From: Takakia lepidozioides
Lineage: Eukaryota; Plantae; Bryophyta
Length of the DNA: 64,000 bases
Assembly (NCBI GenBank): GCA_030704615.1
Contig: CM060733.1
Coordinates: 48,608,001 to 48,672,000 of the forward strand
Direction: 5' to 3'
Below the pieces are notes generated by a model, which saw nothing but the letters and a program-made list of their open reading frames with translations, made no database searches and was not told the origin of the DNA. Positions 31,973 to 63,015 of the stretch are shown here, piece by piece. Each line of letters opens with the position of its first letter. Within the stretch, counting starts at the first letter, position 1. Position numbers and translations under genes: made by a program.

Positions 31973-31974
31973 CG

Positions 31975-37300: not shown

Positions 37301-39784
37301 ATCAAAGTCCATGACTGGTTCTCGCCCTTCCGGCTTCACATTATAACTGGTCACCTTGCTGTTCAGGTCTGTGTTTCCTGTCTCTTGGGCAATTCGATTG
37401 ATTGCCTGATACAGCCTGTGCCTACAATAAGGTGCCACAGCTAATAGCTGTCCAATGGTAATTTCTGCTTTGGTCTGACATATTACTTCAGCCAAAGTCT
37501 CTTCATTACTTTGCATGTCTGCATCTTTTTTCCTTTCTTCCTCACTCCCCTTTTTCTCCATCCGAATCAGAGGAATCTGCCACAGGAATATCAGTACTCT
37601 TTTGCATTTCCTTATAGTATCTGCCACTTCCTTGTGCAGTTCCTTCTCATCTTCCAAGTCTCTTCATCTTCAGGCATATCATTGCCACTTCCAGTCTCAT
37701 CTTCTTCCTCTTCTACTGGAGGTATTAGTTTGGCTTTACTTCTTGTTACTATCATTGTACTTACTTCTGGTACAACACATGGCCTAACCATGTGAGCTGC
37801 CACCACTGGGCCCTCATTCACAGGAGCTCTCATCTCATTCTGGTGTCTTATCCAGAATGAACAGGCTGCCTTGCGATGTCCTGGCTGATTACAATAGTAA
37901 ACATAGCTCTTCACCATTGGGTCCTCGCCCTTGGTCTGGTCTTGGATTATTTCTATAATCCTGATTCCCGGGCTGGTAATTCCCCTTGGATTACCCTGAT
38001 AGTTGCCTCTGGAATTTCCTTGGTAATTCCCTCTTGAATTACCTCTCCCTTCCATGCCATTGTTATAACCACCAGACCTACCATAGTGGTCCTGATCATT
38101 GCTTCTTCTTGGCTGGGGCTGCACCTGATGCACCTCACTTGCCTAGGTTCTCTTGCAGCTGTCCTTCTGTTGTAGTAACAATTCTCAGTAGAATGGTTAT
38201 CCATTTTACAGATAGTACAGTGTTTCTCCTTCATGTGGCATTCTGTAGTGGTATGGCCTTCATTCTGGCACTTTGCACACCATACACCCTTCCTCCAATG
38301 TGTTGCAGCCTCTGTGGCATACTTCTTCAAGATTCTTCCAATCTTTTTCATAGTTATCCCTCTTCAACTTTTCCTTTCTCTTACTCTTTCTTTTTAGTTC
38401 TTGCTCTTCTTCTTCATCTGACTCATCTTCAGAGTCCTCATCTTCCTTTTTCTCTCTCCTGAGCATTCCCAATTGCTCAATTCTGTTTGCAGTTTCAAAT
38501 GCCTCCTCCACTGTATTATGGGGTAACATATCCACTTTCTTCTGCAACTCTGGTCTTAGTCCACTCACAAACCAAGTCTTCTGTAAACCGGGTGCTGGTA
38601 CTGCAGCCAGCTTTTTCATCATCAATTCCATCTTCTCCATATACTCTTCAACAGTTTCATGCTTCTTCTGCTTCAGCTGTTGTAAACTTCCATACACTTC
38701 ATCCTCAGTTTTACTTGTCCTGAACCTATTCGAAATGCTGTATTCAAGCCATTCCAGGTTAGGAAATGATTATCAGGGAATTGCATACCATTCACTTGCT
38801 TTCTTGATAAGTGAACAAGGAAACAGTCTCATCTTGGCATCATCGCCATTCTCATTGTTCACTATACACATGTGCTCAAATTGGCTAATGTGTACATCGG
38901 GATCCCCTTTTCCTGAATATATTGGAAAGGGTGGTTTTGCCCGTGTTGGTTGTAACGCCATCTGTGGCCCTACCTTCTGCCCACTGACAGGTGCTGGCAC
39001 CCTTGCTGGTGCTGGTCCTTCTGGACCTGTTGTTTTTGTGGTGGATCTTCCACCAAGTGGTGGCCCTTGAGCACTCCTGCTTCTGGCCCCACGATATTCA
39101 CAGTATTCCCAGCTTCAGTTGCACTACTTCCCACACTCCCTGTCCCCCCAGAGCCAGATCCAGGCAGCCCGCCTGATCCCCCTGAGCCGACACCTTCGTT
39201 GGCCTGTGATCCAAGTGCTCCACTTGATCCAGGTCCAACGGGTTGGGATGTCCTGGTTGTAGTCTCAACCTCAGCTGTTGGGTCTACTTCTTCATATTCT
39301 TCCTCTTCCAATTTCTTCTCTCTGTTTTCATCCTCCAAGTTCTGCCCTTGGGTTTCTTCTTCACTCATGTAACTCAACTGTAATGGTGTTGGAGAGTCTG
39401 AACTCTCCGTTGGCTCTGCCACATCCTTCTCCTTCTTCATCTTCTGCTTCAGAAACTGGAGTTCCTGCTTTTGGTGTTCCATGCCAACTCTTATCAAAGA
39501 TTTCTGTCAAGTCTTTTATCCAAGGATGTACCTCAGATCTTTCACCTCGTGATTGATCTTCTTCCTGTACCAATTCCCTTAATCTTTCTTGCAAAGAAAC
39601 AGAAGGAGTGGCATCCAACTCTAGTTCTTCCGGTATAGGTGATGCACTTTTTGATCTTGATGGTGAGAGGTCCAGATGATTCCCCTATGTCTATTCCTCT
39701 CTCCCAAAGATATGGATAATTAGCTTTCAGATAGCTTTCTCTTTTTGAATATCTTTGTCGTCTAGCTTCTCTTTCATCACTCAT
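34317..39784 (-). pseudogene. gag-pol of family C (gag, zinc knuckles, protease, RT, integrase; RNase H missing)
   Basis: gag YSGKGDPDVH...LKQKKHETVEEY; CCHC knuckles; protease LIDGGSGVN; RT YKVMPFGLCNAPATF and VFLDDF; integrase HKGVAGGH...CDEC, WGLDFVG, WKGPY. Mostly broken by 1-bp frameshifts. Confidence 0.93.
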
Positions 39785-41950
39785 GTCCCATGTCTTTCAT
39801 TTCTTTTAATGTGGCAATAACCAAAACTCTCTTCTGTAATATCTCTCGTATATGCCTGGATTTCTTTCAAGCTTCAATGCACCCTTGGCTATACTTGAAG
39901 TCTCCGTTACCATATAACCATATGGCAAACAAGTCTGAAAAGCTGTTCTTGGTGTGAGTTTGATCCACAAAATATCCTTTGGAATCCAATTCTTTACCAG
40001 TACAAGCTCTTCATGCATATGAGTATAAACATTCACCTTTCTTTCTTCCCAACCTTCAAACTCTACTCGTTTAATGGATAGCAACGCTATCACATAAACT
40101 AATGTTGGTAACCAACGTGCTCTTCCTCTACAGGCTACCTGATAAATCTTTATCACTCCTTTCTCCAGACCCCATTCTGGATCAGCATCATGCACTCGTT
40201 TAAGATATTTTCTTTACATCCGTCTGGCAATTCCAAGAACCTTTGAAAGAATTGTTTGGACAATCTTTCTTCCTTCGTTCCACAGGGAATTTGATTCACT
40301 TCAAATTCTTTAATGGTCCAACACCATGATCCCACCAGATGCCTGTCACATCTGGTTGTTCATGTCCCAGGTCCCCAGTATGGTCGCCAAATGTCGCGCG
40401 GCTTTTACTCACCCATCCCTTCGCTATCCGAGGCGGAAACTCCAAGATAGAAGAGTTGGAAATCTCTAAGTACTCAGCCCGCGCAGAACAATCAGTCATG
40501 ACCTACAGCTAGTGTATCATGGGGGTGTTTCCTATTTGTTTCCTTTTCCGCATTCATCTTAGCTACCTTACCATTGATAATTAAGTATCAGTTTGCTTCA
40601 TCAATTTATCGGTTTCCTTCACTCTCCATTCAATCCACAGCTTCACTCAGATCTCTCTACACAGTGTGATTGTATCGTATAAGTATCAGATTATGATTTA
40701 TCAGGTATCAGGCCGAAGCCATTATGTCTCTAATCTGCTCTACAATATCACAGCTTTGCATATAACAAGCATCTACTAATCCTCTTTTCTCCTTCATCGT
40801 GCTCTCCGATCTCCGCTCCCGCTGTCTCCGAAGTCCTCCCCGAATAATGATCCCCTTCATTCCCCGTTCTTCCCTTTATCCTCCTATCCGCGGTTCTAAC
40901 CGTTTCCCTCTCTAACCGTCGTATGTGAACTAACATGTTCCCTTCACTGGTGTTGTTCCCCACAGTCGTTCCCTGTCCTACTCTTCGTTCCCTATTATCG
41001 TGACAGCTGTGTCAAGCGGTGACTGGCTGTGTTGGCTGTGTCGGGCTGTGACTGGCTGTGTGGCGGGCTGTGTCTGCTGTGACGACTGTGGGGCTGTGTG
41101 GGCTGTGTGGGCTGTGGACTGTGACGGGCTGTGTTGGCTGTGTGGGCTGATGTGTCGGCTGTGTGGGCTATGTAACCCCCCTCTACAGTGCGCTGCTGTC
41201 ACCCCTAAGGTTCCTGTTTGTCTCAGTCTGTGCAAAAATTAAGGGTACCCTACAGATCCCGTATAAGTGTCTAAGTCCCCTACAGTCCTCTAACAACATG
41301 CATTCACATCAAAATATGAGATAACACCCAGATGCTGGAACTTCACTGCCAAACACTCGTCGTTATGTTGTCTCAACGCCTTTTATGGATTTTTGGACTT
41401 GGGTTTTTTTCCCGCTAGCTTCCAACGCTCCGGTATTCTAGAATCGCCAACAATCCTACACTGACGGACCTTAGCATACCCTTCTTCTTTGTAATGGCCA
41501 ATCTCTACCACCTTCGCACTAGAGTTTAAGTAATAAAGATCAGTTGTGCCTCCCCCGCCCGATGACCCCGCCTTCCAAGCGACAACCCTAGTCCGGCGAT
41601 GTGAATTCTGACTTGCCGAGCAAGCCTAATACTCGACACGCCGCATTAACTCTGCTTCGGCGGAGGACACTCGACCCTTGGTTGTTCTACCCTTCCATGT
41701 CTTCATTAGCTGCCTTAAATTCCACGTGGCGTCTTTCGCCCTATTTTGGATCCACCGAATGAACTTCGACTTGTCCCTGTCCGCCGTCCATTTAACCCCC
41801 GCCAAAGCGTTCGTCATTTTCCTCTCCATATTTTGCTAGAGAATCAGAAACCCCTCCCATCCATGCCTGACATAAGCACTCTCCAGCCTCATCATGTCCC
41901 TACCCTTGAAATAATCCACCACCACTTCTTTCACCCTATCCAAGGCATCC

Positions 41951-44900
41951 TGTCGCGGCCCTTTGCCTTGAGGGCAGGGGGTCGGGACACATGAGGGGCT
42001 GCCCCTGTAGTGGGGGCATCGGCAGCGATAGGTATGGGGGGCTGAAGCACCCTTGAGTGCCCAAGGCACTCAAGGAGGCGGAGGCGCTCACTAGGTGGAG
42101 CCCCGCACACCGGGTTGCGGTGGGGGTGGCTCCACAAGGGGTGTGGTAGCTTAGCGGGACTTAGTGGGGGTGGCATAGGACTCACCATGGGGGCGGAGAC
42201 CTCGTGGTGGGAGTCGTGGGGAGCCTTGGGACTCATCAGGGTCCATAGGGACCGTGATGAGTGGGCCAAGACTCATCGCGACTCATCACCGGGAGTCGAG
42301 GGTTTTCGTGGTGGTTCGCCATAAATGGCATGGCTGGTTATGAAAAACCCCGCGGACAGCTACAGAAGTATATATTGGGAGTAGTAACCCCGAGAACGGT
42401 GCAAGCCCGTTGGTGACAAAAAACTAGTGAGTAAGCGAACGAGCCGGAAAGCGACCAAAGAGTGGGGAGCTGTTCCGGACTGCCATCTACCAAAGGGAAT
42501 TCCTAGTCCCAAATAGGTGGAGGGTTTAGAGGGAAGCGAAGGGGGACCGTTATGTCCCGGTGAGCAGCCGAAGCTCCAAGTTGGCTCGGGCGGCCAGGTT
42601 GGGAGTCAGGGCGCGCATCAAAAGAGTAACTATGACTTGAAGGGGAGCTTACCGAAGTGAGGTGCGCGACACTTGGTATCAGAGCTTAGAGTTCAGTACG
42701 CGATCGTCCTTGGGATTGGCCTCATCATGGGGTCGGGCAAGCCAAGCGAAAGCGGAACGGCCCAAAAGATGATGATCCTGGTGAGCCCGATGGGGGCGAC
42801 GTGTCACCGAGGCGGCCGTTTGAGGAAGCGATGAATGTTTCCAAAAACGAGGCCGCTCAAGAGTGGGAGGAATCCGAGGAGTCGGAGCCTGAGGAATCCT
42901 TGAGAGCTCCGACAAACCAAGAGATGCCTCCCATGCCGGCAGCCTTTTGGGAAGGGTTGTTGGCGCAGTTTGGCGGGACGTTGAAAGACGTGTTGAGGCG
43001 GGTAATGTCACTTCCACTAAGGCAAAGTTTAAGGTGAAGCCTAAGGCTATCTCTGATCCCTCCCTTTGGCACGTAGAGACATTTTTGCTTATATGGGAGC
43101 AGTCCATTTTGCAAGTGGAACTGCGCTTTAACCCCCATCCTCAAGTCCTGCATCACGGACTTTGCCAGCTCATCCTTCCGGCAAGCCTTCCGGATCTTCC
43201 TTTGGAGCGCCGTCTCGCCCTTGTACACCAACAAGAGATGCTGCTTTCTACTTAAAGCATCGGCCACCACGTTGTCTCGTCTCAGTTTGTACTGGATATC
43301 CACGTCGAACACCGCCAAAGTATCTTGCCACCTAAGTTGTTTTGGGGACAACTTGGGCTGCGTGGCAAAATACTTCACCGTGACATTGTCCGTGAACACC
43401 TTCACTGGGTTGAAACCAACATAGTGGCGCCAAAGCTCAAGGCAATGCACCACTGCCTTCATCTCTTTTTCGTGCGTAGGCCACCGTCGCTCCACTTCAT
43501 TCAGTTTCTTACTTTCGTAAGCCACTGGGCGTCCATCTTGCATAAGTACACCCCCAATCGCGAAGTCCGACACATCTGTATGAATCTCAAATGGACGATC
43601 GAACGGATTTTCAAGACTGGAGCTTCCGCCATCCGCTGCTTTAATTCAACAAAAGCTTGGCCACAAAATGTGTTCCATACCCAGACTTTGGATTTACACA
43701 GAAGGTCCGACAGCGGCCCCGCGATCTTGGCAAAATTTCTCACATACTTCCGGTAATAGGAGGCGAGTCCTAGGAAGGATTGCACTCCCGGGACCGAAGT
43801 CGGAGGCTCCCAGTCCAAGATCGCCCTCACCTTTCTGTCATCCATTTTGATCCCATCCTGTGTAATCACATGCCCCAAGAACTCCACTTTCGTGACCCCG
43901 AATTCGCACTTTGAAGCTTTGGCGTACAGCTTCCCTTCCCGCAACTTTTGGAACACCCTTTTGAGGTGCTCCAGGTGCTCCTCCTTTGTTTTCGAGTACA
44001 CCAAGATGTCGTCGATGTACACGATCACAAAGTCATCCAACCACTCCTGAAAAAGGTTGTTCATCAGCATGCTAAAGGTCGCCGGTGCATTGGTGAGCCC
44101 AAAAGGCATCACCAAGAACTCATATGAACCATACCTTGTCCTGCACGCGGTCTTCTCCTCATCTCCTTCCGCCACCCGAATTTGATGATAGCCGGAGCGC
44201 AAGTCGATCCGGCTGAAATACTTCGCTCCTGCCAACCGATCGAAGAGGTAGTCGATCCTTGGCAAAGGGTACCGGTTTTTATAGTCACCTTATTCAGAAA
44301 CCCTGTAATCGACACACATCCGCAGCGTCCCATCCTTCTTGTCTGCGAATAGCACCGGGGCTCCGTAAGGTGACTTACTCGGCCGGATGTACCCCTTTGA
44401 CATTAGATCCTTGAGCTGAGTCTTCAGCTCGACCAACTCTCTGTGGCTCAACCGGTAGGGCGCCTTGGCAGGCGGTTCGGATCCCGGTATCACCTCAATC
44501 TTGTGGTCAACTCCTCTTCGCGGTGGCAAGCCGTTTGGTAAATCCTCCGGCATCACATCCTGGTATTTCTCCAAAATCCCCTTGATCCAATCTGGGCTCA
44601 GCTCCCCATCGCCTTCCCCTTCACTTCTCTAATGTAAAGCAAAAACTGGGGTTCGTGTGCCTCCTCCACGGCCCACTCCCTTGCTGACAGAAGGTTTATT
44701 CGCCCTCCCACGGATTTGGGCGTTTCCGACACTCGTAAGACCTCGCCACCATTCCCACATGGCAGCGTGACTACTCTCTTGCGGCCATCTATGACCGCTC
44801 CGGATTTACTCAGAAAGGTCATCCCCAAAATGAGATCTACTCCATCGATCTCGCAGATGGTGAAGTTCTCACGTCCCTCCCAACTCCCCAGTTGAAGAGG

Positions 44901-47900
44901 AACATTAAACGCCAACCTTGTCGCCAACTCTGGTTCTCCTTTGGCAGAACGCACCTCAATAGAGGCCCCACGTCACTTGTCGGGAGTCCCAGCTTTTGTG
45001 CCGCCGCCGGTGTCATGAAGGAGTGCGACGCTCTTGTGTCCACCAACAACGACACATTAGTTCCGGATATTATCCCATCCACGAACAATAACTGACTCCC
45101 TTTACGCGGGCGCCAGTTTCCTGATACAACTCACAAGAATAGTTGCCTACCTTGCAAGTCCTGGCGACCACCGCTTCCACCAAGCGACTGATGGTATCTT
45201 CCGACAGCTCCGTGGTTGCCCGAGTCATGTTCAATTGCCGGGGCTTCGTGCACTTCTTGGCCATGTGCCCGGGCTCCCCGCAATTGAAACACACCATCAA
45301 AGGTCACTTTCTGTCCGCCATAAGCCGCTCCACCCGCTTTTCCTTTCGAAGCACCGGGTGCCGCCTTGACGTGTGAAGGCCCTCCCTTCGATTTCCACGT
45401 GCCATTATCGCCGCGTGGCCTATCCCACTTCTTTTCCGGTCGGAATGAGTCACCTTCCCGCGGGTCTTCTTGTGGTTCAGCTCCGTACGGCCTTGTCTCT
45501 TACCCCTAGGGACATCCGAGAAACATTCAGCCCTCTCAATTGCCTCGTTCAAAGTCTTGGGTGGCTCCTCCTCCAACTTCCGCCTGGCCCATGGGGCCAG
45601 TCCCGCCACAAAGTTGAAGACCATTTCTGGTTCTGCCATGTCCGCGACTTCGAGCAACAGCACATTGAAAGCCTGGACATACCCCCGAATGTCATCTGTT
45701 TGCTTCAAATTCCTCATCTTGTCTCGGGCAAGCCAGGACGCGTTGAGGGGCACAAACTGTCTCTTCATCAATTCTTTGAACCCACTCCACTTCAAGGTTT
45801 CCGGGCTTGGGCCTCGGTCGTGAAGGCGTTTTTGCCACCATTGTTGAGCATAGCCCCTCAAATAGGTGGGAGCCACTTCCACCCGATCCTCGTCACTCAA
45901 CTTGGCCGCCCGGAAGTACTGCTCTAGCTCCAGGAGCCAGGTGTTGAGTGCCTTCCGATTTCGAACGCCCTCGAAGGTGCCGGGTTCGGGAAAGCGTCTT
46001 GATGGATTTCATGACTGCTATGCCGCTGTCAAAAGGATTCGATGCAATCATGGTGGTGGTGGATAGGTTCAGTAAAATGGGCCATTTCATCCCCACCAAG
46101 GAGACGGCAACGGCGCAGGAGACAGGGCGACTTTACTTCGCCCACGTCTTAAAGCATCATGGAGTCCCTAAGGATATTGTCTCGGATCGCGATCCAAAGT
46201 TTACGAGTAAATTTTGGAGGACACTTTGGAAGAAGATGGGGACGAGGCTCAAGATGAGCACCGCCTTCCGACCTACGACCGACGGCCAAACAGAAAAGGC
46301 GAATTCCGTAGTGAAGCAGATCTTACGGAATTACGTGTCGGCAGACCAAACAGACTGGGTGGAACACTTAGACGCGGCAGAGTTCTGTTATAATAACACA
46401 GAACACTCCGCAACGGGAGTTTCCCCTTTCGTATTGGTCTATGGAAAAGCACCTCTGGTGCCGACAAGTTGGGCCGCCCAGGACGTTGAGAAACCGGCAG
46501 TAGCGGCGGTACTAGAAGAACGCGAGCGTTTGTTGAAGCTCGCAAAGTACAACATTGCCAAAGCAGGAAACGGTATGAAAGGCAGGCGAATCGGAAGCGG
46601 AGGGAAGTGAAGTTTGAGGCAGGCACAGAGGTCTGGTTGAACATCAAGAATTTCCGACTACCTCCGGAAGTGAGTCCGAAGTTCATACCTCCGTATGCGG
46701 GACCCTTTCGCATTTGGAAGGTTATGAATGAGGATGTGTATGAATTGGAGCTGCCGGCAAACAGCAAGGTGCACCCAGTATTCCATGTCTCCCTTTTGAA
46801 GCCTTACTTCAAAGATGAAGCGCGTCCAAATCGGCATCAAGTGTTGCGTCCGCCACCTATGCTGTTGGATCATGAAAATGAACCTGAGTACAAGGTGGAG
46901 GCAATACTTAAGTCGAGGAGGTTCAAGAACCGAGAAACGGAGTATCTTGTCAAATGGAAGGGCTATCATCATGTGGAGGCATCTTGGGTGCGTGCCTCAG
47001 AAATGGGAAACGCATCCGAGGCGGTTGCAGCTTTCGAAGGGCGACCTCAAAAGCGGAAGAAACGTTGATGGGGACATCAACCTTGGAGCGTGGGGGAGGA
47101 AATGCATGCTTAGCCCGGCTTAGCTAGCTTAGGAATCCGATTACAAAAACTTGTATTGTACAAAAATTTGTTGTAAAGGAAATGGGTTCCAAATGTTGTG
47201 CGTCCTATTTTGTTTGGAATGGTGATGCATGGTATGGTTGGCTAGTGTGTAGAATGCATGCTAGCTTATAAAAGTGGGAGAGGTAAATTGGGTTAATCGT
47301 GTGTTTGCGTAGTGCCGAAATCGGGTGACCCCATCCAAGGGGCAAGGAAACTTGCGACTTCTTTGGAGTTCACGTGCTAGTGCGCACCTGGCGCGTGCGC
47401 GTACTATAACTGCGCTACCGAGGGGTTGCCTTGTAGTGCAGGCTAACGCGGAAGCTACGTAGTTCCGTTCACGTACTATAATCGTGTAGCCTCGGACGAA
47501 GTCGTAGTGCGGCTTCGGCGTGTTCCCGTACCTCAGGCCAGCATTCCAAGGCGGACCCAATTGTAGTGATTGGGGCGCACGGTTGGTTCAAGGTTATCTT
47601 CCTAGTCAAAGAGGGTTCCAGGGAACCCTTGCTCAAGGTGATGCCAAAAGCGCCATATGAGCGATCGCAAGCAATGTTGTTGCAGTAAGGCGATTCGATC
47701 CTCGGGGGAGGATCGTTCCTTGGCCTTGAAGTAGGCCAAGAAGAGTGCACTGGGAGGAGCTGGAGAGGCTCCACCCTTGGCCAGGACTTGGAGGAAGTCG
47801 GCCGAACTAGCTAGTGGAGAGTAGAGTCAAGTGTGGGGTTTGGTTCTTTGCCATGGACGCCATGGTGCGGAAACAAACTCCTTGATGTGGGACGCCACAA

Positions 47901-48693
47901 CTTGGATGTTCGTTTCTACAAAATGGACAAGTCGATGAGGACATCGACTCCCTGTTGGTAGGGGTGTGTGTCGCGGCCCTTTGCCTTGAGGGCAGGGGGT
48001 CGGGACACATGAGGGGCTGCCCCTGTAGTGGGGGCATCGGCAGCGATAGGTAGGGGGGCTGAAGCACCCTTGAGTGCCCAAGGCACTCAAGGAGGCGGAG
48101 GCGCTCACTAGGTGGAGCCCCGCACACCGGGTTGCGGTGGGGGTGGCTCCACAAGGGGTGGTGGTAGCTTAGCGGGACTTAGTGGGGGTGGCATAGGACT
48201 CACCATGGGGGCGGAGACCTCGTGGTGGGAGTCGTGGGGAGCCTTGGGACTCATCAGGGTCCATAGGGACCGTGATGAGTGGGCCAAGACTCACCGCGAC
48301 TCATCACCGGGAGTCGAGGGTTTTCGTGGTGGTTCGCCATAAAATGGCATGGCTGGTTATGAAACCCCCGCGGACAGCTACAGAAGTATATATAGGGAGT
48401 AGTAACCCCGAGAACGGTGCAAGCCCGTTGGTGACCAAAAACTAGTGAGTAAGCGAACGAGCCGGAAAGCGACCAAAGAGTGGGGAGCTGTTCCGGACTG
48501 CCATCTACCAAAGGGAATTCTCCTAGTCCCAAATAGGTGGAGGGTTTAGAGGGAAGCGAAGGGGGACCGTTATGTCCCGGTGAGCAGCCGAAGCTCCAAG
48601 TTGGCTCGGGCGGCCAGGTTGGGAGTCAGGCGCGCGCATCAAAGCGAGTAACTATGACTTGAAGGGGAGCTTACCGAAGTGAGGTGCGCGACA
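41951..48693 (+). mobile_element. Chromoviral Gypsy family B, full-length, with internal inversion
   Basis: LTRs 41951-42671 and 47969-48693; TSD CATCC; PBS TGGTATCAGAGC 42674-42685; integrase-chromodomain on + (45996-47068) but gag, protease, RT (VYIDD) and RNase H on - (43041-45990). Confidence 0.97.
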
Positions 48694-49399
48694 CATCCGG
48701 TCCCGGGTAGTCTGGCTTGTTGACATGGCTATCCCGCTCGTGGGCACATTTTCTCTTCCTCCGACCCCCAGACGACCCCGCCCCAGAACATGAATTCACA
48801 ACCCCCGACATTGTATAAACCTTTGCCCTCTACATGTGATAAAACCTTAGAAAACGGCATGGACGCGTGTGGATGGTGTGATCTTCGTAGTTTCTACAAA
48901 AAAAACTTGCCGCTGGAGATCCAAAAACGGCAAAATGGTGATACGATGATTGGACCGTGAACAAGGGTGTGGGACTAACCAATACAAAACCGACAAACAA
49001 AACCTCTCTCTCCCCCCCCCAAAAAAAAAAATAATCACCTTTGCACCTCCCGTTGGCAGTGCCAAGCAACGAAGTCCGAAAGGACTACAGGATGCCAAGG
49101 AACCGCACCACGAGAGCGGCAAAAGTGATCAGAAAAAGAGGGGGGAATGGTTTATATAGGTGCCCATAAGCCCTCCCCCCGCCCCAAAATGACATTATGC
49201 GTGAAAAGGCGCGACGGCCAGTGGCACCTCGCCACACGCACCGACATGGGAGGTCAAGGGTTCAAAACCACCTCCCCCCCCCCCCCCCCTCCCATTTGTT
49301 TCATTTTTCCTGACCCGTGGCACCTCGCCACGTGGCTGGCCAGGCGCCGTCTCATGATATATATATTTTTTAAACCCGCCACACGGCGGGTCCCTGGAT

Positions 49400-49490
49400 T
49401 TCCAAAAAAATAAAAAACACGCGACCGTCGCATGGCGGTCGCTATATTTGTAAAAAGAAGAAGAGCGACCGCCACATGGCGGTCGTTGTA
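49400..49490. repeat. Two GC-rich palindromes GCGACCG(T/C)C(G/A)CATGGCGGTCG upstream of the kinase
   Basis: Copies at ~49421-49442 and ~49464-49484; resemble subterminal repeats of DNA transposons. Confidence 0.6.
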
Positions 49491-49609
49491 TTTTTTCAAA
49501 ATATATTAATAATTGGTTTCAGAAATCATCAATAATTCTTTATTATTCAACAGTGAAGAACGAAAACAGAGACATCGTTGGCGTTTAAATGTACTGTCAT
49601 ATATGTCTG

Positions 49610-51132
49610 CCTAAAACTGAGATGAAGGACTATATCATGGTGATTCAGTACACCCCCTATGAATTTCTTGAAAACTTCTCGGGTACCCTGAAAGTTATCC
49701 TACCGATTATTGTGGGTATTCAGTGGAACCACATGGAGATACTGAACTGGTGGAAGTATACTCCGGTGTGCCCGTGCAGAATCTTTCCATTTCTGATGAA
49801 TCCGAATGGTCGGAACTTACAGTTGACGTATGTGTGTATTGTACCAAAAATGAGGCCAATTGTCGCGGCCCTTTGCCTTGAGGGCAGGGGGTCGGGACAC
49901 AAGAGGGGCTGCCCCTGTGGTGGGGGCAGTGGCAGCGATAGGTATGGGGGGCTGAAGCACCCTTGAGTGCCCAAAGCACTCAAGGAGGCGGAGGCGCTCA
50001 CTAGGTGGAACCCTGCACACCGGGTTGCGGTGGGGGTGGCTCCACAAGGGGTGGTGGTAGCTTAGCGGGACTTAAGGGGGTGGCATAGGACTCACCCTGG
50101 GGCGGAGACCTCGTGGTGGGAGTCGTGGGGAGTCTTGGGACTCATCACGGTTCATAGGGGCCGTGGAGGGTGGGCCAAGACTCACCGCGACTCATCACCG
50201 GGAGTCGAGGGTGTTCGTGGTGGTTCGCCATAAAATGACATGGTTGTTTGTGAAACCCCCGCGGACAGCTACAGAAGTATATATAGGGGAGTAGTAACCC
50301 CGACAACGGTGCAAGCCCGTTGGTGACCAAAAACTAGTGAGTAAGCGAGCGAGCCGGAAAGCGACCAAAGAGTGGGGAGCTGTTCCGGACTGCCAACTAC
50401 CAAAGGGAATTCCACTGGTTCCAAATCGTTGGAGGGTTCTTTGGGAGATCAAAGGGGGACCGTTATGCCTCGGTGAGAAGCCGGAGTTCCAAGTTGGCCC
50501 GGCGGCCAGGTTGGGAGTTAGGCGCACGCATCAAGCGAGTAACTATGACTTGAGGGGGGAGCTTACCGAAGTGAGGTGCACGACACCAATGCAGCCGACC
50601 CGGGTGATCGGAGGTGGCTAAAGTATCATATTGGTGAGTACTCTGGGGATCCGAGAGTATACCCTGGCGATAAGGGTGTATACTTTGGCGATGAGGGAGT
50701 GTACTCTGGGGATACGGGAGTATACTCCGGAGATTCGGGTGTATACTCTGGGGAATCCGGTGTATACGCAAGGTACATAGCGCAGAAATCATTTGATTCC
50801 GCCGATACTTAAGATACATGATCTCCGAAAGACCCTCCACAGTATTGTTCTGGAAAAGAACTTAAAGCTGCTAACCCGGTAGGAATGTCGCAAAAATATC
50901 CTATTGGTGAATAATTGTCCTGATCGTCTGATTCAGGAGAATAGCTGTCAGGCTCCTCTGTGGATAGAATTGTAGAAACTGGAGATGATCGATCATAAAC
51001 TTGAAGTCCTTCGGAAGGTCTCGTCATAATAACCGCAGCTCCGCATTCACCTTGTGAGGAGGGTGAAAGCGTTGCCTTGTGACCAGTATGTTCCATCTCC
51101 TTCTCCTTCTTCATCAAACACGAATCCACCAC
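49610..51132 (-). pseudogene. RNA Pol II CTD-like heptad-repeat protein, interrupted by a solo LTR
   Basis: 50641-50766 on minus translates to [42 protein letters not shown], then YSPI*YF. It is in frame with ORF 50809-51132 across one TAA, and with ...AAL|ASFLVQY once the solo LTR is removed. Confidence 0.75.
49861..50585 (+). mobile_element. Solo LTR of family B
   Basis: TGTCGCGG...GCACGACA, flanked by TSD CCAAT; no PBS or PPT. Confidence 0.97.
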
Positions 51133-51189
51133 ACTGGAAGAATCATCAAGAACTCGTGCTCAGTTACAGACTGTACAGAATGAGACACG

Positions 51190-51585
51190 TGAAGAACGCG
51201 CGATCGCACGTATTTGGTCCACAGTTTTCCCTCCACTAACGTAAAATCCGATTTCAAGCAACAACGAGGTTGCTAAGCATGGCGAACAGATCCCTATCCA
51301 TGACTCTGCCAGACCTGTGGATCGATACTCGGCTAGTATTGTATTGTCTTGTGGTCCACACTGAATACCTCCTCCCATCATACATAAGAGTGACCATGTC
51401 AGCAGCACATCCAAGAATTATCATATTATATGTGCATGACAAGACTGATAAAGTGCGTCGTAAGGTTTTACTTGACATTGTATGATATGAACTAATGTCT
51501 TGCGAATCACTTTACAGTTTTGAGGATGCACTCATAGGTGTCCTCATCTATGTCTAGCTAATCATCTGGGTATCAATAGTAATGT
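51190..51585. repeat. Palindrome plus degenerate hairpin unit, paralogous to 63550-63990
   Basis: CGCGCGATCGCACG at 51197-51210; 51345-51580 aligns with 63715-63947. Confidence 0.8.
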
Positions 51586-52534
51586 GAGGTAGCCTATACT
51601 ATATGCGCACACAAATGCATGCATATGGAGGAATGTATGCGTGCATACAAATTTTAGATATGCATAGGAACAATTTTATATGCACAACACTTAAATAAGG
51701 GTACCCAAAAAAAAATAAAAAATTGTGATTCATCTAATCTTAGGGTCCATAGTCAAAATATCAAAGGATGGAATAAGAATATTCTATATAGAATATTCCA
51801 TATTCATTGTATTATTATTCCACATGGGTGAGTGTAGGAATGGGAGAGGAACATGTTGCTTTTATGGCTTTCCAACATGAAAAAAGGTCGAAAAATTAAA
51901 AAGTGACGAGGCACGGCTCCTTGTTAGATACAAATGGTGAAGGTACGGGCTCTTCCAATGGTGGGAGTCTAGTTTGAAGTTCAGAATGGAGCAATGCTAA
52001 GGGAATGCTAGGGAGCTTGACAATGCTAGGGAGCTTGTTACATAGGTTTTGCAGTATCTATATATCTATCTTCTGAAACATTTTTATTTTACAAAAACAT
52101 AATGTCCATCAGAGATAGAACCCACAACCTATCGGGTATCAAGCCTAGTTCATACCACTACACTACCCATTCAGACTTGAAACACTAATGAAATGAAACA
52201 CTAATGAGATAAAGATAGTCACCCTGTGTGTACATAACATGCCACAATACTCATAAGGGTTGATCTTACTAATGATGAAATTTGATAGTGCTGAAGTGCA
52301 TGTCGAACTTGCATTAAGGTAAAGGGATCTATGAAATGCAGTAGAGATCTATGTACAAACTATTACATAGATAAATCAAATGACAGGAAGATAACATGAA
52401 ATCTGATTTCAACACCATGTCATTTGCCCCATTTGTTTTACCTTACACTAGAGAGAAATACATGTATCATAAAAATAACAAAAAATTCGGACTGACAATG
52501 AGGACAATGTATTGTATATGTAATTTCTAATTAC

Positions 52535-55500
52535 CTACATAACATCATCAGCTGATACTTCATCATCCGTGTCATAAGCCTGTGATTCAGAGGCATACAC
52601 ATCCATGAAAGCCTCAACTCTACGCAACCTATCCACGGATTGTCCAACAATAGCTGCTCTTCGGTCAAACAACAGATCATTGGAAAGACCTACATCACGT
52701 TGTTGATGTATTGAATGCAAAGCTTGGGACTCGGCATACGAAGGTAGATAAAACGATGAAAGAGGACTTTGGGGTAGACTATCGTAGATGGTCCGCACAA
52801 TCCCATCACTGCATCACATACATGTATACTTATGTTAACAAATCAAATGGGAATGGTTTGCTTTGCAAATAATATAGAGATTGCAACAAAGGGAATGGAG
52901 GCGAGACATACTCACTAGGAAGTACTGCCGAGATGAAGACCAAGCTTGCGCGCCACCTTAGGAGCGGGGGGTTCCAACAAACTCACAGGACGTTGAATGG
53001 TTGGAGTTACCACAGATGAAACCAAAACGGGTTGAGTATTTTGAAGTGCAGAGAGACGTGCTGCATACAACGTCTGGTCCCCCTCAAGACCAAATACGTG
53101 ACGTCCAGACTCGCGGGCAGCAATAAATGTAGAACCTGCAGGAAAAAAACATGCAATGATGATATTATATCGGATAACAGTTAATGATCATGAATCAGCT
53201 CAGAAGATTTTAATTACAAAATGGAGACCAATGCAAACCTGTGCCAGCTGTGAGATCCAAAATGCGGGAGCCAGAGGTGAGCATGTCTCCAACAACACTT
53301 GCATGAAGGCGGGACTACGGTCTCGCGCACCCCTCCAGGCTTGTTGAGGAGTTTGCATGGGTAGTGCAACATCTGGAATGTGGTTGTAGATGGCATCCAA
53401 CTCAACAGGGTCTGCAAGGGGGTCCACAACTTTGCCAGACTCACGCAGTTTGAATAGTCCTCCTTGCTTGGTGAGGACATGGGCGTGGAAGAACATGGTC
53501 TGTTAGACGTGCCATTTCCACAAAAACAGTGCACCCGGATGGTTTAATAATATGTATGAGAGTAGGAAGATGAAACATCAAACAATGAGATATTGAAGAG
53601 GGATGATTTTTACCTTTCCTGTCTGAGTGTGTAGAGGGGGGTATTGATGCAAGTATATTTCCTTGATAATACGGAAATAGAGCTGCCCCTGGAGTAAGAA
53701 AAGAGCTCCAATGCAAAGAAATCATCGGAGCCCTGCAAGAACACCAAGCATCCATTGTCATCCAACAGGTCATTAGCAATGGAGAATGCATACTCCCAAT
53801 ACCGTTTATCAAAAGCATTCCAGGGAGGAACCTGTACACCATCCAAACAGCCCTGTACAGGCATTCCTGTTGGGCAGTCCACGATGATCATGTCCACAGC
53901 CACATGCACGCTTTTTCCATCCACAACACTAGACCAAGTTCCTGGCAACTGCAAACAACATACAGAAAATGTAGGAGTCAATAGCCGGATGATGAGGATA
54001 TAAAAACATCGAAGAATTCCTTACATTCAAGTTTGTTTGTTGGGGGAAACTCACATTTTTAAGAACTCCATGAGCTCTTTCAAGGTCGCATCAGGAGATG
54101 TACTTGAGGCCTCCACCATATCAATGAAATGAGTAGGCATGATCTTCATGCGATACATGCTAGGTGCACCACCAGAAAATGACACTGCACTGTAAGGATG
54201 TTCGCCTGCCTTTGGCTTGTTTCCTCGAGTAGTAGGTGCAGGCACTACAACCAACTGATTTGAAGGATGTGAAGAACTACCAATAGGACCAGCAATAGAA
54301 GCCACACCTGCATTGGGGGCCACACCTGCATTGACATCCGCACCTTTTCTTTTTCGTGATTTGCGTTTTGGTACACCCACAACGGCAGGGACCACTTGGG
54401 CTACAGCGTCAGCGGCCTGTGTAGCAATCTGTTCTGCATGCTCCAGATCAAGAACAGGGACTTCAGTGGAGATACCCCCTTCATCACTCACTGACTGCCT
54501 GCGAACACATTCCTTATGAAGTCCCATTTCTGCATAGGGGATAGTACCCTTGGGCATATCCAAATACCAACCCCCCCCTTCCCGGTGTTCCACACCCCAA
54601 TCTTCCTCAATTGCAGGTGTGTACATGGAAGCTTGTTGAGCACCAAACTTCCAGGCCATCAGAAACTTGGGCTCAGCCTTAAGTCGATCACTCGGTACAA
54701 GCACAAATCTCATGTACCTAAAATACAAACACATTCAAAGTTATTGTGGAGACAAATATTTATGCAACCTGTTCAACAATTGAACAAGCACATTAGAAAC
54801 ATGTATATCCCAATGTACTAGAAAAATACTTGAAGCATAGACATTTTTGACTTACAAGGTGTATACACTATCCATGTACAATGCAATGGAAAGATGGTAC
54901 CTGAATAAAATCCGTCTCACCACCTTCTCCCCACCTGTTTGTTGTTCCCAATCATTGCCTCTGAATGGCCCTTTGGCAATGAGAACTCTCTATGAAACAA
55001 CTCATTGAAATGTCATCTTCCATGTATCCATGTAGTCTCCCAGACTCTCACTCTCTCCTTCCTCCAAGGCAACATGAAATTGGCCAAGCTGAGTGGTGTA
55101 CAAGGCAAACTGAGCCAGGCAACTTGCGAAGCTGCCAGAAAATACAGTCAGTTAAATAACTATGTTAATGTGTCATCAACAAAATGAATTAATTGCATTG
55201 AGAAGATAGTGATTGTATATGTACCTGCCACCAAAAAGTCCTTCTATTCAGCCAAGGATCAAGTGTTGGCCCACTGATAGGCCCGGGTGGAAAAAAATTA
55301 CGGTCGTGAAGTGTTTGGTCTCCATTCCATATATGTAGCCATTCCACCTTTTCTTCAGGATCCACCGGGCGCAATGTTCACCATTTTCTCTTGGGTCATT
55401 TCCTCTGATCCTGCCTTTACACGTGACCAATGCAGTTTAAGTTCTTGGAGAAACCCCTCTCCAAGGGTTGGATCAGCAATAGGAAGCAACTTCACAAGCT

Positions 55501-56680
55501 GACTCTTGTGTTGCTCCCTTGCTTTCAATCCAGCCTGTCTCATTGTCTTCAAGGCCTCTTGACTCTTTGGCCCCTCAGCAGTTTGTAAGCTTCCCCCGCC
55601 ATGCGTTGGGCCTCAACAATATCATGCTGCCAAAAGAACCAAAACAGTTCATAACATGAACCAGAGGTGAATCTTGTCTATGGATGCAAAGAATGAAACT
55701 TGGTTAAGACATGATGTTACCTTGTACAAAATCTCTGTCATTGCATGGACTGTCAGGTTATACCAAGTCTTTCCTGCTTTCTTGATGCATTCGTCGTATT
55801 GCTCTTTCCTCAATACATTCTTCCATTCAGAGACAGGTGTAAGGCCAATCATATTGACCTTGCAAACCAAGTGCACAAATTTGGATGTAACATGTGCCCT
55901 CTCTGTTGCCCTGCACATATAAAATATGATCATTAGAAAGAAGATGTGTATATGTACATCCATTGAGCAAGAACATGACAACATTGAACATGAAAGTAAA
56001 TGAAGAATAGAAAGGAAACTCACACATTCACTCCATCCATGATGGACCTGAGGGAACCACGATTTTCAATGTCCGCATTGAGCACCCAACTTGTCACACA
56101 GACATGTCTTGACAAGTTGGCCCCATGAACTTCATTGATATAGGGATACCATGCTTGAAGCCTATGATTCCCATCCCAGACATGAAACATCTTCCCCCGA
56201 AGATGATGCAACTTTGGCTTGGACTCAAGATACTTCTCAAACTCATCATTGACTGTTTTCCAATGACTATCCCATGTAGAGATGATATCAGGACCTACAT
56301 CTATAGTAGATCCATCAATCCCCTCAACAGAAACATAGAACACGGCTGCTCCTGGATGGTATCCAGAATAGAAGTCTCCTCTAAGCTTTAGGATGTCGTT
56401 GGCAAGGGCGGGCCTAACAACCTGCATAGAAATCATGCGACACAATGGAATGTCCATAACTCCATCCTCAATGAGGAGGGACCTGAAAGTTACATTCAGA
56501 TCTTGTTTCTTTTCCAGAATAATTGCCTGTTTGGCATCTAGAGAAAGAGGATCACTAGATGTTGTATCCTCTTCATACTCATCTGCCCCCCAATTCCCTG
56601 CATCAATGTCGTCAATAATGGTTGCAAGCGTCCCGGCCTCCACAGCTTCAGTTGTAGTAGTAATTTCCTAATTCCATAGA
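52535..56680 (-). CDS. Multi-exon ParB/Srx-like domain plus beta-class N6A/N4C DNA methyltransferase-like protein
   Basis: ParB motif VWDGNHRL (56158-56181); motif-IV-like VDMIIVDCPTG (DCPT at 53868-53879) followed by LLDDNGCLVF; SAM-binding ILDLTAGT|GSTFIAARESGRHVFGLEGD joined across the GT-AG intron 53136-53238. Possible exon 1 at ~58069-58146. A few 1-bp frameshifts. Confidence 0.8.
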
Positions 56681-56869: not shown

Positions 56870-57985
56870 AGAGGACCTCCGACCACCTACGCCGGCGCAT
56901 ATGACACATATGTGCAACCAACTCAAAATTTGACAAGATTTGAGGCCCTGAAGAAATTTTTGCTCAAGGAGCTCCAAGCATATGCGCCGGCGCATACCAT
57001 GGAAGGGAGGTTGTAGCCAAACATACAGGAGCACCTTGAAAGATCAAACTAGGCCTATGGAAGCATGTGGAGTTGTGGAGGTGGCAACGTAGAAGCTTTG
57101 AGATACTTGAATACTGTGATCAACCAAAATAGGGAAGGTTCCCCAAGCGTCTGCGCCGACGGAGGTGGCAGCCTCGACACTTTGGAGCTTACGTAACACA
57201 AGGAATATACAACAAAAAACCAAGCTCCAAGCATCTCCGCCGGCGGAGATGCTTGCATGAGGTTCCTGAAACCTAGGAGCTAAGCAAAAAAGATTGTGCT
57301 CAATGGGTATGCGCCGGCGGATATGGCAGCCCAGCCGCTCGGAGCATCAACAACTTATGAGAATGCGGAGAAACAAAAGAGATGGAAGGGGGGAGAACTT
57401 CCTGAAATATGTGAGCAGCCCTGCTGCACGGGTCTGTGTTGACAGAGGTGGCAGCCTTGGCGCTTTGGAGCTTCCGTAACACAGGGAATATGCAAAAAAA
57501 ACCAAGCTCCAAGTGTCTCCGCCGGTGGAGACGCTTGCAGGAGGTTCCTGAAACCTATGATCTGAGCAAAAAAAATGTACTCAATGGGTATGCGCCGGCG
57601 GATATGCCAGCGCAGCCCACTCGGAGCATCAACATGCGGAAAAACAAAGAAGATGGAAAAGGGGAGAACTTCCTGAAACATTTGAGCAGCCCTGCTGCAC
57701 AGGTATGCGCCGGCGGAATACGCCAGCCCAACCCGCTCGGAGCATCAGCAACGTATGAGCATGCAAAAAAATAAACGGGATGGGAGTAGAGGAGCACTTC
57801 CTGAAACATGCGAGCATCCCAGCTCCAACGGTATGCGCCGGCGGAGGTGGCAGCCCAGCCCTTCCAAGCATCAGAAAAAACCAAGGGGAATGAGCTGTCT
57901 CCGGCGGAGACGGTTGTGTGTATGTGGAGATTCGCAAACTTGTGAGAGTTGAAGTGACTTAGGCATCTGCGCCGGCGGAGGTGCT
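56870..57985. repeat. Tandem repeat (~140/280-bp units) with about 11 CGCCGGCG-type palindromes
   Basis: 57220-57500 is repeated at 57500-57780; TGCGCCGGCGGA recurs at e.g. 57310, 57591, 57706, 57834 and 57968. Confidence 0.85.
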
Positions 57986-58500: not shown

Positions 58501-59192
58501 AGGAGAGCGGGGAAAAGGGGGCGAAGGCTAAGGCCAAATTGGCCAAATCTGAAATGTGAACATTTTTTATACACTCTGGCGTTAGTGCTTTTTGGACTAC
58601 ATGGGTTACACGTGATCCTCAGAAGATGGTTGTACGATTGACATGTTACTTTTGGCGGCGCCTTCATAATACAATATAAAGTAAGTGATAAAGTAACTAA
58701 ATATTTTGTTATGGGTGTCTTAATCAATTTATTGGTTTTAGAGTCAATTGTCGCCACAAATACTTGTACTCATTACTCATACATGAGTAATCAAAGAACA
58801 AATCAACATACATGTCATGGGATTTGATTGTAAATAAATTGTGCCGTCTAGTGTGTCAGTTCATAGTTGGACGATTAATCAACGATTGGTTGTAAAATAA
58901 ATGGAAACATGCAGAGCATTTATGTTTCATATGCTCATAAGAAGAAAGCAGTACATTGGATTCTAAGATCTCAACAACGGCGCCGTCGTCGTCTTAAAAA
59001 TAGGGGATAGTCCATTTAGTTGTTTCTGTCAGAGAATAATATGGATGGAGCACATGCCTCAAAAAATTGGACCTTCTGGATTGATGATACACATAAGTAA
59101 TGTAAGCCATTTAATGTATTTGCATAAGGTCTTGCAAGATGTGCGCTTTCATTCATTTTGCATCTTCTCTCAAACTTTGAGGGCATTGCCAA

Positions 59193-61760
59193 ATGTCTAC
59201 ACCAAAATATGCAGTGCTTTCATGTCCACCTGATGCAAAAGTGGTTCGTTATCCTTGCAATGGAAACAAGTGCATTATCCCAGAACCTTGGTTATGCAAT
59301 AGATTCAAACTTGTTCCGGGTTCAGTTTTTTTGGAGGATGATGGAGATGATGATGCCTCCACAGTGTTGCTTCCAGTTTTCAATGACGGCCAAAAGCAAT
59401 GGGAGTTGTTTCCAGACACTTTCTCCAAGTACCGTGTCACAGGTACGAGCTATACACAGTCACATGATGAGAGGCACACTTCTATTGCAAGAAAGAACGA
59501 TCAAGCTGCAACAAATGGGAGTTGTAAATTGAAGGAGGAGGTTGCAGATTCGGCGAGCTTGGGGTCTCATAATTCGGATTGTGTTGAGGTTTCTAAGAGT
59601 GTATTTTGTGGATCTCAACCTTCCTCATCTGCTCATACGGTCTTGCTTCACGACATGAAGCCTCGGAAAACTCCATTGGACAACACCACGTCTGATTGTT
59701 GCGAATCTGCGAGGGGTTTATCTTCATCTCCACGACTAGCAGGGGAGGCTACATCTGCATTTCCTTCTGGTGTGTTGTCCATTTTGAGTATCTTGGCCAC
59801 TGCTCGGAGGAATGGATCAAAAGGAGAGCTTTCTACCTTGGACTATAGTCACATTCCAGTGCATCGTGTTTGGTGTCTTCCTCGAGCTTTGATGGAAAAA
59901 GTGATCCACGAACTCCCCCCCGTGGTCAAACTACGTACGGACCGTGGTTCACAGTCCCTCCAAGGCATGGACCGCAAGTTTGATGGTCATCCTTGGTGCA
60001 AGACCAATACCTACAATATGTCTGGTGTTCCAGATCATGTGAAATGTAGTAAGGTTCTTTGTGTTGGAAAGCTCATATGTCAAAGCAGCACTTGCCCCTT
60101 CTTCAAGAAAGAAGGAGAACGGAATGACCGCTATTGGGAAGGCAATGCAGACAAGGTGTTCATTGCAGAGCCCAAGTTCCATTCAACCAGTTCAAGTGTA
60201 GTTTCTGCAAAGAAAGACCTTTCTGTGAGGCGCATTGTGGGGCAAGAATGTACTATGTCACAAGTTCCCTTCCAACATACACGTGTTGCAGTTCACGTTG
60301 GGTTTCATAACCATCCATGTGCCAAGGGCGAGAATAGAGAGGCTGCGAAAATGCATCAAGCATGATTCAAGAGCACGTTAAGATGAAGCCATGGTCGACC
60401 CGGGAGCTATTTCCTTGTCAATGGCCCAAAAGCTCTTGATTGATCGAGTTCTTGTGGCTGATGGCACAGAGACAGTACGTCTTGGGAGAGGCTTTGGAAG
60501 ATATTCTTGAAGAGTTTGCCCATGTTTGTAGCCCCAATGTGAAAAACAAGGTCGCATCTGCACGTGTCAATTCCATCATGTCCATATTGGAGTTGAAGCG
60601 TCTGAGTACATACCATTTCATTCACAGCAATCTCCTTCCAGGCCAGCATATTTCTCATCTCCCCATGTTTTCAAGATGTCTGTTGCTGGTCCCGGGGTGT
60701 GGTGTTGATCTTGTGCGTCGCATGAGTGAGGGGGATCTACGCACAAGTTGGGTAGTATTTGACCATGTCAAACGCATCAAGGATTGGACAACTCTTGCGT
60801 GTCATGTCTATGAACCATATGTCAAGCGAATGATGACCATTGCCATTTGCGATATGAAAAAAGAGGATGCAGATGCTCAGGTGTTATTCTGGGAGATGAT
60901 CAATGAACAAGCAAAACTTGCTGGCTTGAACAAACCAAATTTTGCTGGCTTCATGGCGGATGCAGCAGGAGCGAATTGGGCTGCTGTTCGAAGGGTTTAT
61001 GGATCTGATCCCAATGTCCAATGGAAGGTAAAGAAAGAACATGTTTATATCATTGGGCTGAAAGCCTCCGAAGACACACCAACGACTATATCTTGGAGGA
61101 CTTCCGTGAAAGGCACACTCAGCTCTGTTATGAATGGAAAGATAGTGCTACCTTGGAGGATGCTACAACCACATACATTGCAATTCGGGCTTGGTGGCTC
61201 TCTTCAGGAGCATGCACAGAAAAGAGTCTGCCAAAACTAGATTCATGGCTTGCATGGTGGCACTACAGATATCGAATGTGGGGCCAATGGATGAGAGAGG
61301 ACATGGATGTGGAGGCAGATGCAGATATGCCTACCACTAATTTGTCTGAGGCAGTCTATTCTGCTTGGTGGAAGACAGCAGGCAATGGGAAAAAAATGAA
61401 GGTGGATCTATATGAGGCCACCATGCATGACATGTCACGAGCTCTTTTGCAGCAGGCAACATTTTACAGGCACACCACAGGAAAGACATGGGGGACGGGG
61501 CCCGACAAAGAGGAGCTCATGTTGCGTCAAGCAGCTAGATCTAATAGCCCAGCAAAAATGGGTAAGGTTGTACGTGGCATAGTAGCTGGAACACCCATGC
61601 ACACAAGGGGGGTTCAATTGGAGGGAGACAATCGCACTATTCCAGTCAAACGCAAGTTAGGCGATGAGCATGGTGGGCCAAACGAATCTTGGAGGTGTGA
61701 TATGAATGTAAAGACTGTTCCAGTGCGCGCCACTGGGATGCCCAGTCCACACCAGCAGTT
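59193..61760 (+). CDS. MULE-type DDE transposase with N-terminal WRKY/GCM-like Zn finger (frameshifted)
   Basis: CVGKLICQSSTC...HVGFHNHPC; catalytic D (VVFDH), D (FMADAAG), CxxH (CLYHW) and E (TTNLSEA) across ORFs 59193-60365, 60440-61240 and 61021-61830. Confidence 0.85.
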
Positions 61761-62040
61761 TCATATTAACCAAAATATGGACTTTTGTACTAACAAATGC
61801 ATATGTGTCATGTTTGGAACCACCACATAGCATGTCTGTTTGTAATGCCAAGCAGTTCTATAATTTGAAAACTTGTATGACAGGTACACAAGTTCCATTT
61901 TAACCAAAATAGGAACTTCTGTACTAACAAGTGCTATGTGTCATGTTTGGAATAAAGTAGTAACAAGATAATTACATGTCACATGCATGAAAATGAACGG
62001 CACAAGTTAGAGGTTCTTTTTTTGTGCATTTCATGTGTCA

Positions 62041-63015
62041 CTAAGAAGTTGAACTAGGGTCCTTCTTTAGCATAGCCCTAACCTCTAACTGGCTAAGGGA
62101 AGGTTGGTGGATCTCATAAGCCCCGGCGCATCCTAGATGCACGTTGTACATGAAGTACATGTGCTTACAAGGTAGATATGTTTGTTTTTTCTTCTTGACG
62201 GATAGCTCATCAAAGTCGGGACAATCACAAGATGGAAATTGACCAATGTATACATTGTAAGCCAATCCTGCTCTGGTAGATCCCTCTGTTTGTAGCTGGT
62301 AAATTCTCCCATAACCTGGCTGAGGCACGTTTCTGAATCCACGAACCTCAGCAATAAGAGTCTCCGCTGACTCTTGGCGACTCAAGTCGAGGAGTCGGAT
62401 CCCGACGCCGAATGCGCACCCCATAGCGTGTAGTGGGATACTTACCCACAGGAAGGACAACACCTTGATGAATATGTTGTTCCACTGGAAGTGGTCCCAC
62501 AGGAAAGTTCGGATCAGGAACGTTGGGAGGATGGACTAGTCGAAAACCTGCAAGGGTCAAGTTGTCCACCTCTTCTTGTGTAAGGTTGGTTCCAACCTTC
62601 ACAGGCCACACGTTAGGTATACCCGGTTTTCCCAAGCAATAGGATGGCACGGTCCCTCCAACACACGACAAAACATCTGTGGGGCAAAACCAAAAAACTT
62701 GCAGTTTTGGTTCTTTCATGTTCGGTGCTAGTAACTTGCCAGTGAAGCAAGGTGCAGGACTTCCTTTACCTTTCCTGATGAGCGCTTTGCATTTATCTTT
62801 GGAAACTTCAACCAAGGCAGAACAACGAACCATGGAAGCAGGACCTGTCCGCTGAATCCTGAACAATGCATCGGAAAAGTCTTGTGTCTCTCTCACTGGA
62901 TTTCCCCATTGCATTGGCTGAGGAGGGATAGCAACATGTGGATTTGTCTCACAGAAAGTCGAAGAACTAGGAATGTCATGACTTGATTTGGCCAGGGATC
63001 TTGTATTCTCTTCAG
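62041..63015 (-). CDS. SWIM zinc-finger module, likely the transposase C-terminus in inverted orientation
   Basis: YNVYIGQFPSCDCPDF...LPCKH (CxC-xn-CxH); ORFs 62348-62914 and 62041-62463 are linked by a frameshift. Confidence 0.8.

Follow-up and report, generated by a model that had tools for sequence, protein, structure and literature searches.

A CTD-like heptad array in a decayed and likely transposon-borne ORF of the moss Takakia lepidozioides

The locus and its genes

The window, i.e., the whole 64,000-nucleotide stretch of Takakia lepidozioides DNA that was analysed (contig CM060733.1, positions 48,608,001 to 48,672,000), carries on its minus strand a decayed ORF running from 51132 to 49611, with its first in-frame ATG at 51114. 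The ORF has 264 codons when a 725-bp solo LTR (49861–50585) and one 5-bp copy of its target site are omitted, so the length of ~265 codons given by a sequence-only reading of this DNA is right on condition that five internal stops are read through, at the codons that begin at 50811, 50628, 49709, 49697 and 49637. With five stops and the solo LTR, this copy is a pseudogene. The 5' part (50586–51132) holds the ATG, the first two stops, a module of the type YSPIGYF...AAL.SF..QY (module 1, 50842–50913), an array of six Y-T-P-x-S-P-x heptads (50641–50766), and the first half of a related module (module 2, 50586–50640), which includes a stop and is interrupted by the LTR. The frame continues past the LTR into the 3' part (49611–49855), which comprises the end of module 2, degenerate heptad-like words and the other three stops. 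The LTR, already recognized as solo in the sequence-only reading, has a CCAAT target-site duplication, is 91–93% like three other LTRs in the window and is missing from other copies of the ORF.

The two modules, which start with YSPIGYF and between which the array sits, had also been proposed before; both the translation and a degenerate DNA pattern bear them out. Sites of this pattern occur in the window at 50913, 50640 and 9388 (0.2 expected), the last in a distant paralogous ORF (9245–9610, minus strand; tblastn E 5e-5) that carries one module but lacks both a heptad array and any similarity to the main ORF at the DNA level; the palindromic motif described below for the main ORF precedes this paralogue as well. 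No polymerase domain was found (Pfam) in the ORF or in 29 scanned ORFs of the window, and the neighbours are transposon-like, in agreement with the initial view that the array is not part of an RPB1 gene. There was no Rfam match within 48000–54000.

Directly downstream on the same strand is a decayed protein-kinase gene (27896–48810), matched in pieces at ~41950–41296 and 28590–27896, with its 5' end probably near 48800. It is split by nested LTR elements (41951–48693 and 28590–41295, each with a 5-bp duplication) and, leaving these out, starts ~800 bases downstream of the ORF. The LTRs of the element at 41951–48693 are 98% identical; its gag-pol frames are on the minus strand and its integrase region, which is duplicated at 24124–26761, is on the plus strand. 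The element at 28590–41295 has two extra ORFs after pol (29640–32071, minus strand; 477 and 368 aa) with no Pfam match above cut-off.

The kinase family (~495 aa; motifs WWNGGT, HNDLSPDNILL and VCDWG) has 28 relatives with 38–50% identity, including two Ceratodon purpureus proteins, one protein labelled as a Bacilli MAG and others from sources that include metagenome assemblies. A single Ceratodon cluster comprises 126 members, of which the 15 listed are spread over many chromosomes; because of these many dispersed relatives we regard the kinase as a mobile gene. One relative is predicted to have a protein-kinase fold (pLDDT 80) with a helical N-terminal part. It has no sequence match in PDB, no preference for CDKs (none among the best 50 PDB structure matches listed) and generic viral structure matches (10–16% identity), and the kinase alignment retrieved no relatives from viral and prokaryote contigs. 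Neither heptad array nor module occurs near a related kinase in 78 metagenome loci, most of them distant or short; this is a weak test, as close, full-length loci are limited to L001–L004 and >600 bases of upstream sequence to L001, and it speaks weakly against a conserved kinase-array pairing. L001 (683–6732) encodes an intact kinase relative and a 364-aa ORF of unknown function, each following clusters of short repeats. L015 (2671–10903), where a kinase relative lies ~7 kb from a match to the SWIM gene described below, is the sole one of the 78 loci to match that gene.

Upstream of the ORF, on the minus strand, is a multi-exon gene with GT-AG introns (52535–56667, 3' end approximate). Its first exon (DGNHR) is ParB-like, a weak call with a recognition value below the mark of the tool, and the gene has no support in Pfam, PHROGs or NCBIfam; its later exons may be DNA methyltransferase-like. 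Beyond it are a frameshifted MULE-type transposase-like gene (59181–61830, plus strand), for which 24 of 30 Atlas matches carry PF10551 (scores 0.92–0.93) and which has no direct Pfam match, and a SWIM zinc-finger gene (62041–63016, minus strand; PF04434, 20.2 bits vs. a cut-off of 19.6). A palindromic CGCGCGATCGCG-type motif just upstream of the ORF (51197–51210) is one of seven such sites (≤2 mismatches) in the window, all outside the LTR inserts (12 strand-matches vs. 0.48 expected). The non-coding stretch at 51346–51580 (minus strand) is 84% identical over 235 bp to 63716–63947, upstream of the SWIM gene.

Other features are more distant. Three NIF/FCP1-like phosphatase-fold ORF pieces (16724–19837, plus strand, opposite to the array), all below the Pfam cut-off, lie ~10 kb from the array with nested LTR elements left out. 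The catalytic phosphatase motif is DxDx(T/V), and one piece reads DVNGV at the expected site; no homologue was found for the first piece, the NIF-like ORFs gave no PDB match, and the single-sequence model has a pLDDT of 31. A RING-finger-like ORF piece (13306–13725, minus strand) lies among several unknown ORFs at 11–16 kb. Imperfect palindromic elements of 350–560 bp, possibly MITE-like, occur at 9623–10100, 26821–27198 and 27250–27808, the first two ~80% related.

The heptad array, its frame and its other copies

Six-frame translation recovers the array as six minus-strand units of 21 bp each, spanning 50766 to 50641, and no second such array anywhere in the window. TRF gives a period of 21 with 6.1 copies (77% matches, 0 indels, score 125). 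The 60-residue stretch between flanking stops scores 26.3 bits against PF05001 (RPB1 repeat; cut-off 20.3), while a longer, X-bearing translation falls below the cut-off (13.9 bits). The probability of Y[ST]PxSP arising by chance is ~4e-5 (random 21-mer of local composition, any phase or strand), for a pattern chosen post hoc. The units first reported are thus real, with adjustments. The span had been given as 50620–50766; its start holds and its end moves to 50641, as 50640–50620 opens module 2, with a stop replacing G. Tyr1, Ser5 and Pro6 are kept in 6/6 units, as stated earlier, while Pro3 is kept in 5/6 (the last unit reads YTLGSPE) and position 2, described as Ser or Thr, is Thr in 6/6 and never Ser. 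Acidic residues, said to be frequent at positions 4 and 7, occupy position 7 in 4/6 units (mostly Glu; codon 7 is mostly GAG) and position 4 in 2/6. Ser2, Thr4 and Ser7 of the CTD consensus are each found in 0/6 units and no unit is YSPTSPS. Tyr recurs at every seventh residue in 6/6 units, running on into the YSP of module 2.

The array reads GVYSGDx on the antisense strand in a frame that shares third positions with the CTD frame, a caveat raised from the outset. Over 50590–51130, the CTD (minus) frame contains 2 stops and the other five frames 6–13 (~9 expected); the GVYSGD frame has 8, of which 3 are altered in other copies and 5 are not among the listed variants. Within the array, the deepest contig of X1 and X3 has A in place of C at 50746, which creates a stop in the GVYSGD frame and only a Glu-to-Asp replacement in the minus frame. 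These stops settle the minus strand as the coding strand, as originally proposed, and it is the minus frame, rather than the plus frame alone, that stays open in other copies over the part covered.

Those copies come from public sequencing contigs aligned to the region, as opposed to assembled paralogues; runs X1–X4 represent one sample, possibly the same source as the window, and the variants listed are 40 of 158 rows, over 50587–51240. Joints from 49860 to 50611 in X1, X2 and X5 identify copies that lack the solo LTR and are 3 bases shorter, in frame. In four runs, 92–100% of the depth has a sense codon at the first stop; the second reads Gly in one X2 contig (compared by eye), and the two Leu residues that spoil units 5 and 6 are, among the variants listed, particular to the window copy. 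The number of units differs among copies, with one extra unit in the deepest contig in X1 and X3. Across 32 listed contig pieces, 19 are free of any net indel; a further 11 differ by +21, -3, -6 or -9, one differs by -2, and the remaining one by -1 at a site upstream of the frame. Hence 11 of the 12 pieces gapped inside the ORF (~six distinct events) remain in frame, rather than showing the frame-breaking indels that the sequence-only reading expected of a neutral minisatellite. Decay is also seen elsewhere, with a stop at a Tyr position in one contig and a shortened array in another.

Many divergent contigs from one sample cover the ORF and both flanks, so the ORF is multi-copy. Depth ratios (288–497 vs. 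31–69 for single contigs in X1, X3 and X4; rough values) suggest about ten close copies. Summed contig depth over both flanks is several times that of the ORF; this is not usable as a copy number and is at most a hint of an ORF that is dispensable to the element or changes quickly. No transcript of the ORF was found; contigs on the ORF are absent from run X6 (presumed RNA) and, over 50663–51115, from X5, neither of which we count as evidence.

Variation among the six units bears on selection. In the core codons (Y, T, P, S, P), 9/30 third positions are variable compared to 1/60 first and second positions (p = 1.6e-4 for this post hoc choice of positions); across all seven codons the contrast is marginal (10/42 vs. 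9/84, p = 0.05). Pairwise pN/pS is lowest for the CTD frame (0.38), followed by the GVYSGD frame (0.45), and ranges from 0.61 to 1.94 in the others. Outside the array, 4/20 listed variants are synonymous, i.e., no excess over the neutral share of 0.255; 12 of these 20 are particular to the decayed window copy, and 2 of the remaining 8 are synonymous. A count of 9/18 synonymous array variants was set aside, because shifts in unit register make differences between units look like differences between copies. The codon pattern makes past selection on the array at the protein level probable, in line with the earlier proposal.

Relatives and membership of an element

Protein, metagenome and viral contig searches returned no true homologue of the non-repeat part of the ORF, and no module-related loci occur in metagenome or viral contigs. 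Six of 291 candidates matched, all through the repeat alone (search limited to lengths 105–335); look-alikes that share just the repeat are seen in oyster, Eragrostis, wheat and a metagenome. A fly protein, the sole match among 1.84 billion, is spurious, its score being summed over its 12 repeats. Like the array, the unnamed proteins XP_048751148.1 (Ostrea edulis), TVU47117.1 (Eragrostis curvula) and KAF7050039.1 (Triticum aestivum) have tandem Y-x-P-x-S-P, often with Thr2 and Glu/Asp7, but the likeness is confined to the repeats and the YSPIGYF module is absent. With the RPB1/NRPB1 CTD (Y1S2P3T4S5P6S7, PF05001) the array has in common the heptad period, Tyr1, a hydroxyl at position 2, Pro3, Ser5 and Pro6. 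It differs in having no attached polymerase, Thr2 throughout, neither Thr4 nor Ser7, an acidic character, only 6–7 units and an internal rather than C-terminal position. Yeast Sen1-type CTD-mimicking regions likewise present a CTD-like docking site on a non-polymerase protein; those are reportedly short stretches of cellular host proteins whose partners have been tested, whereas the heptads here form a tandem array, probably in a transposon gene, and have putative partners only.

Because the kinase family is dispersed and the neighbours are MULE-like and ParB-like, the ORF is likely transposon cargo rather than RPB1; dispersal applies to the kinase family in Ceratodon only. From its sequence context, the array gene probably serves as an accessory gene in a large Mutator-like transposon of this moss. 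The MULE-like gene is ~8 kb from the ORF, and the CGCGCGATCGCG motif and the upstream duplicate tie the ORF to the SWIM side, making these genes candidate co-members; these features point to either a single large element or a group of related ones. Overall, we consider it probable that the ORF and its neighbours belong to one element. MULEs end in terminal inverted repeats with target-site duplications of 8–11 bp; self-comparison of the window yielded no candidate pair of such ends, and the element may exceed the window.

The closest parallel in kind is VANC of the Arabidopsis VANDAL elements, which the available text of PMC5735166 describes as transposon accessory proteins that counter silencing and contain tandem peptide motifs. 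The likeness extends to the position of an accessory gene by a transposase, to tandem motifs in variable regions, and to short DNA motifs repeated in non-coding parts of the element (same portion of PMC5735166). The ORF differs in having no DUF1985 or DUF287 match (Pfam) and no homology to VANC; VANC proteins also bind specific DNA sequences and cause demethylation in trans, activities that would be hypothetical for the ORF product. Between the divergent ParB-like and MULE-like genes, at 56889–57980, a CCGCCGGCGCA-type motif recurs about ten times in imperfect tandem repeats that recall VANC target arrays. In a survey of mainly open literature (main texts), nothing was found that reports a transposon gene with a CTD-like array, or this moss element; the available part of PMC4738411 describes neither, and repeat annotations in supplements of moss papers may list the element. 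Taken together, the feature is real, distinct from the RPB1 CTD, and likely part of a new form of transposon cargo gene with putative mimicry.

Explanations for the array

We tentatively favor a transposon accessory protein whose array would serve for CTD-like phosphorylation and docking; this is the most likely single reading, closely followed by a generic spacer. The predicted product is a disordered protein with Y-T-P-x-S-P-E repeats that proline-directed kinases would phosphorylate and on which host CTD readers or transcription factors would dock; Glu7, and in some units Asp/Glu4, would take the place of phospho-marks. The acidic residues would thus suggest a phospho-like rather than an initiation state, and the likeliest benefit would be to aid the element's own transcription. 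Within the sections of PMC13377220 available, the essential CTD grammar consists of SP motifs and periodic Tyr, with variation tolerated at flanking residues; the array fits this grammar, which we count in favor of CTD-like docking, along with the open minus frame, reversal of the first stop, in-frame indels, a pN/pS of 0.38, the additional copies and the neighbours. According to the same sections, the free positions must carry small uncharged residues for Mediator to bind, and ~9–11 repeats are required in yeast (PMC13377220); the array is acidic and has 6–7 units, which we count against it. Also counted against are the 4/20 synonymous variants, the -2 indel, the stop at Tyr, the shortened array, the lack of a homologue, the 0/78 kinase loci, the paralogue at 9245–9610 that has the module and no array, and the element ends that were not found in the window. 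Functional CTD mimicry by the protein is unproven.

It is also possible, somewhat less so, that the protein is a real accessory protein whose array acts as no more than a disordered Ser/Thr-Pro-rich spacer of a generic kind, or as a phospho-switch (e.g., a degron, or a substrate of MAPK or of the element's own kinase), CTD-like by convergence and not engaging Pol II factors. Thr2 in all six units, the lack of a consensus unit, the paralogue without array and the varying unit number agree with this, as do the similar Y-x-P-x-S-P-acidic runs seen in proteins from oyster, Eragrostis, wheat and a metagenome that are otherwise unrelated. The strict seven-residue spacing of Tyr, continued into module 2, would be needless in a generic spacer, however, and the array stretch exceeds the PF05001 cut-off.

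A neutral 21-bp minisatellite, recently expanded in a decaying or never-functional ORF and owing its codon pattern to the founding unit and chance, is unlikely. While a 21-bp unit preserves frame automatically, the all-codon test is marginal, variants outside the array appear neutral and no transcript was found, such a repeat does not account well for the core-codon contrast (1/60 vs. 9/30, again with positions chosen post hoc), the open frame of other copies, the non-unit indels of -3, -6 and -9 that are in frame, or a YSPIGYF module that persists in a paralogue with no DNA similarity.

More elaborate, and rather improbable, is a giant moss Mutator-like transposon with a complete set of CTD-directed functions, namely a free CTD mimic, its own kinase and the NIF/FCP1-like phosphatase-fold genes, by means of which it would attract the host's Pol II processing factors, or draw them away, and escape silencing. 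Pack-MULE-style capture of a host RPB1 CTD fragment that later diverged seems more improbable still. MULEs are established to capture genes, a precedent that suits the MULE context here, but Thr2 in common and a mostly GAG codon 7 are expected from amplifying one non-consensus unit, the Pfam scan of the ORF and the window ORFs reveals no other RPB1 similarity, and the array is nested inside a larger module repeat; we infer that it arose by local slippage of one unit. Coding by the plus-strand GVYSGDx frame, despite third positions in common with the CTD frame and a pN/pS close to it, is highly improbable given its 8 stops, most of them unaltered among the listed variants, and the further one created at 50746.

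Should the heptads prove to be a generic spacer, the ORF is a transposon pseudogene of modest interest. Even without mimicry, the window reveals a probable multi-gene moss element (kinase, ParB-like, MULE-like, SWIM) of which we found no description in the literature. If the array works as a CTD mimic, this would be a transposon acting directly on the Pol II phosphorylation code, a counter-silencing route unlike that of VANC, and it would offer a testable reading for unnamed CTD-like proteins in plant and animal databases.
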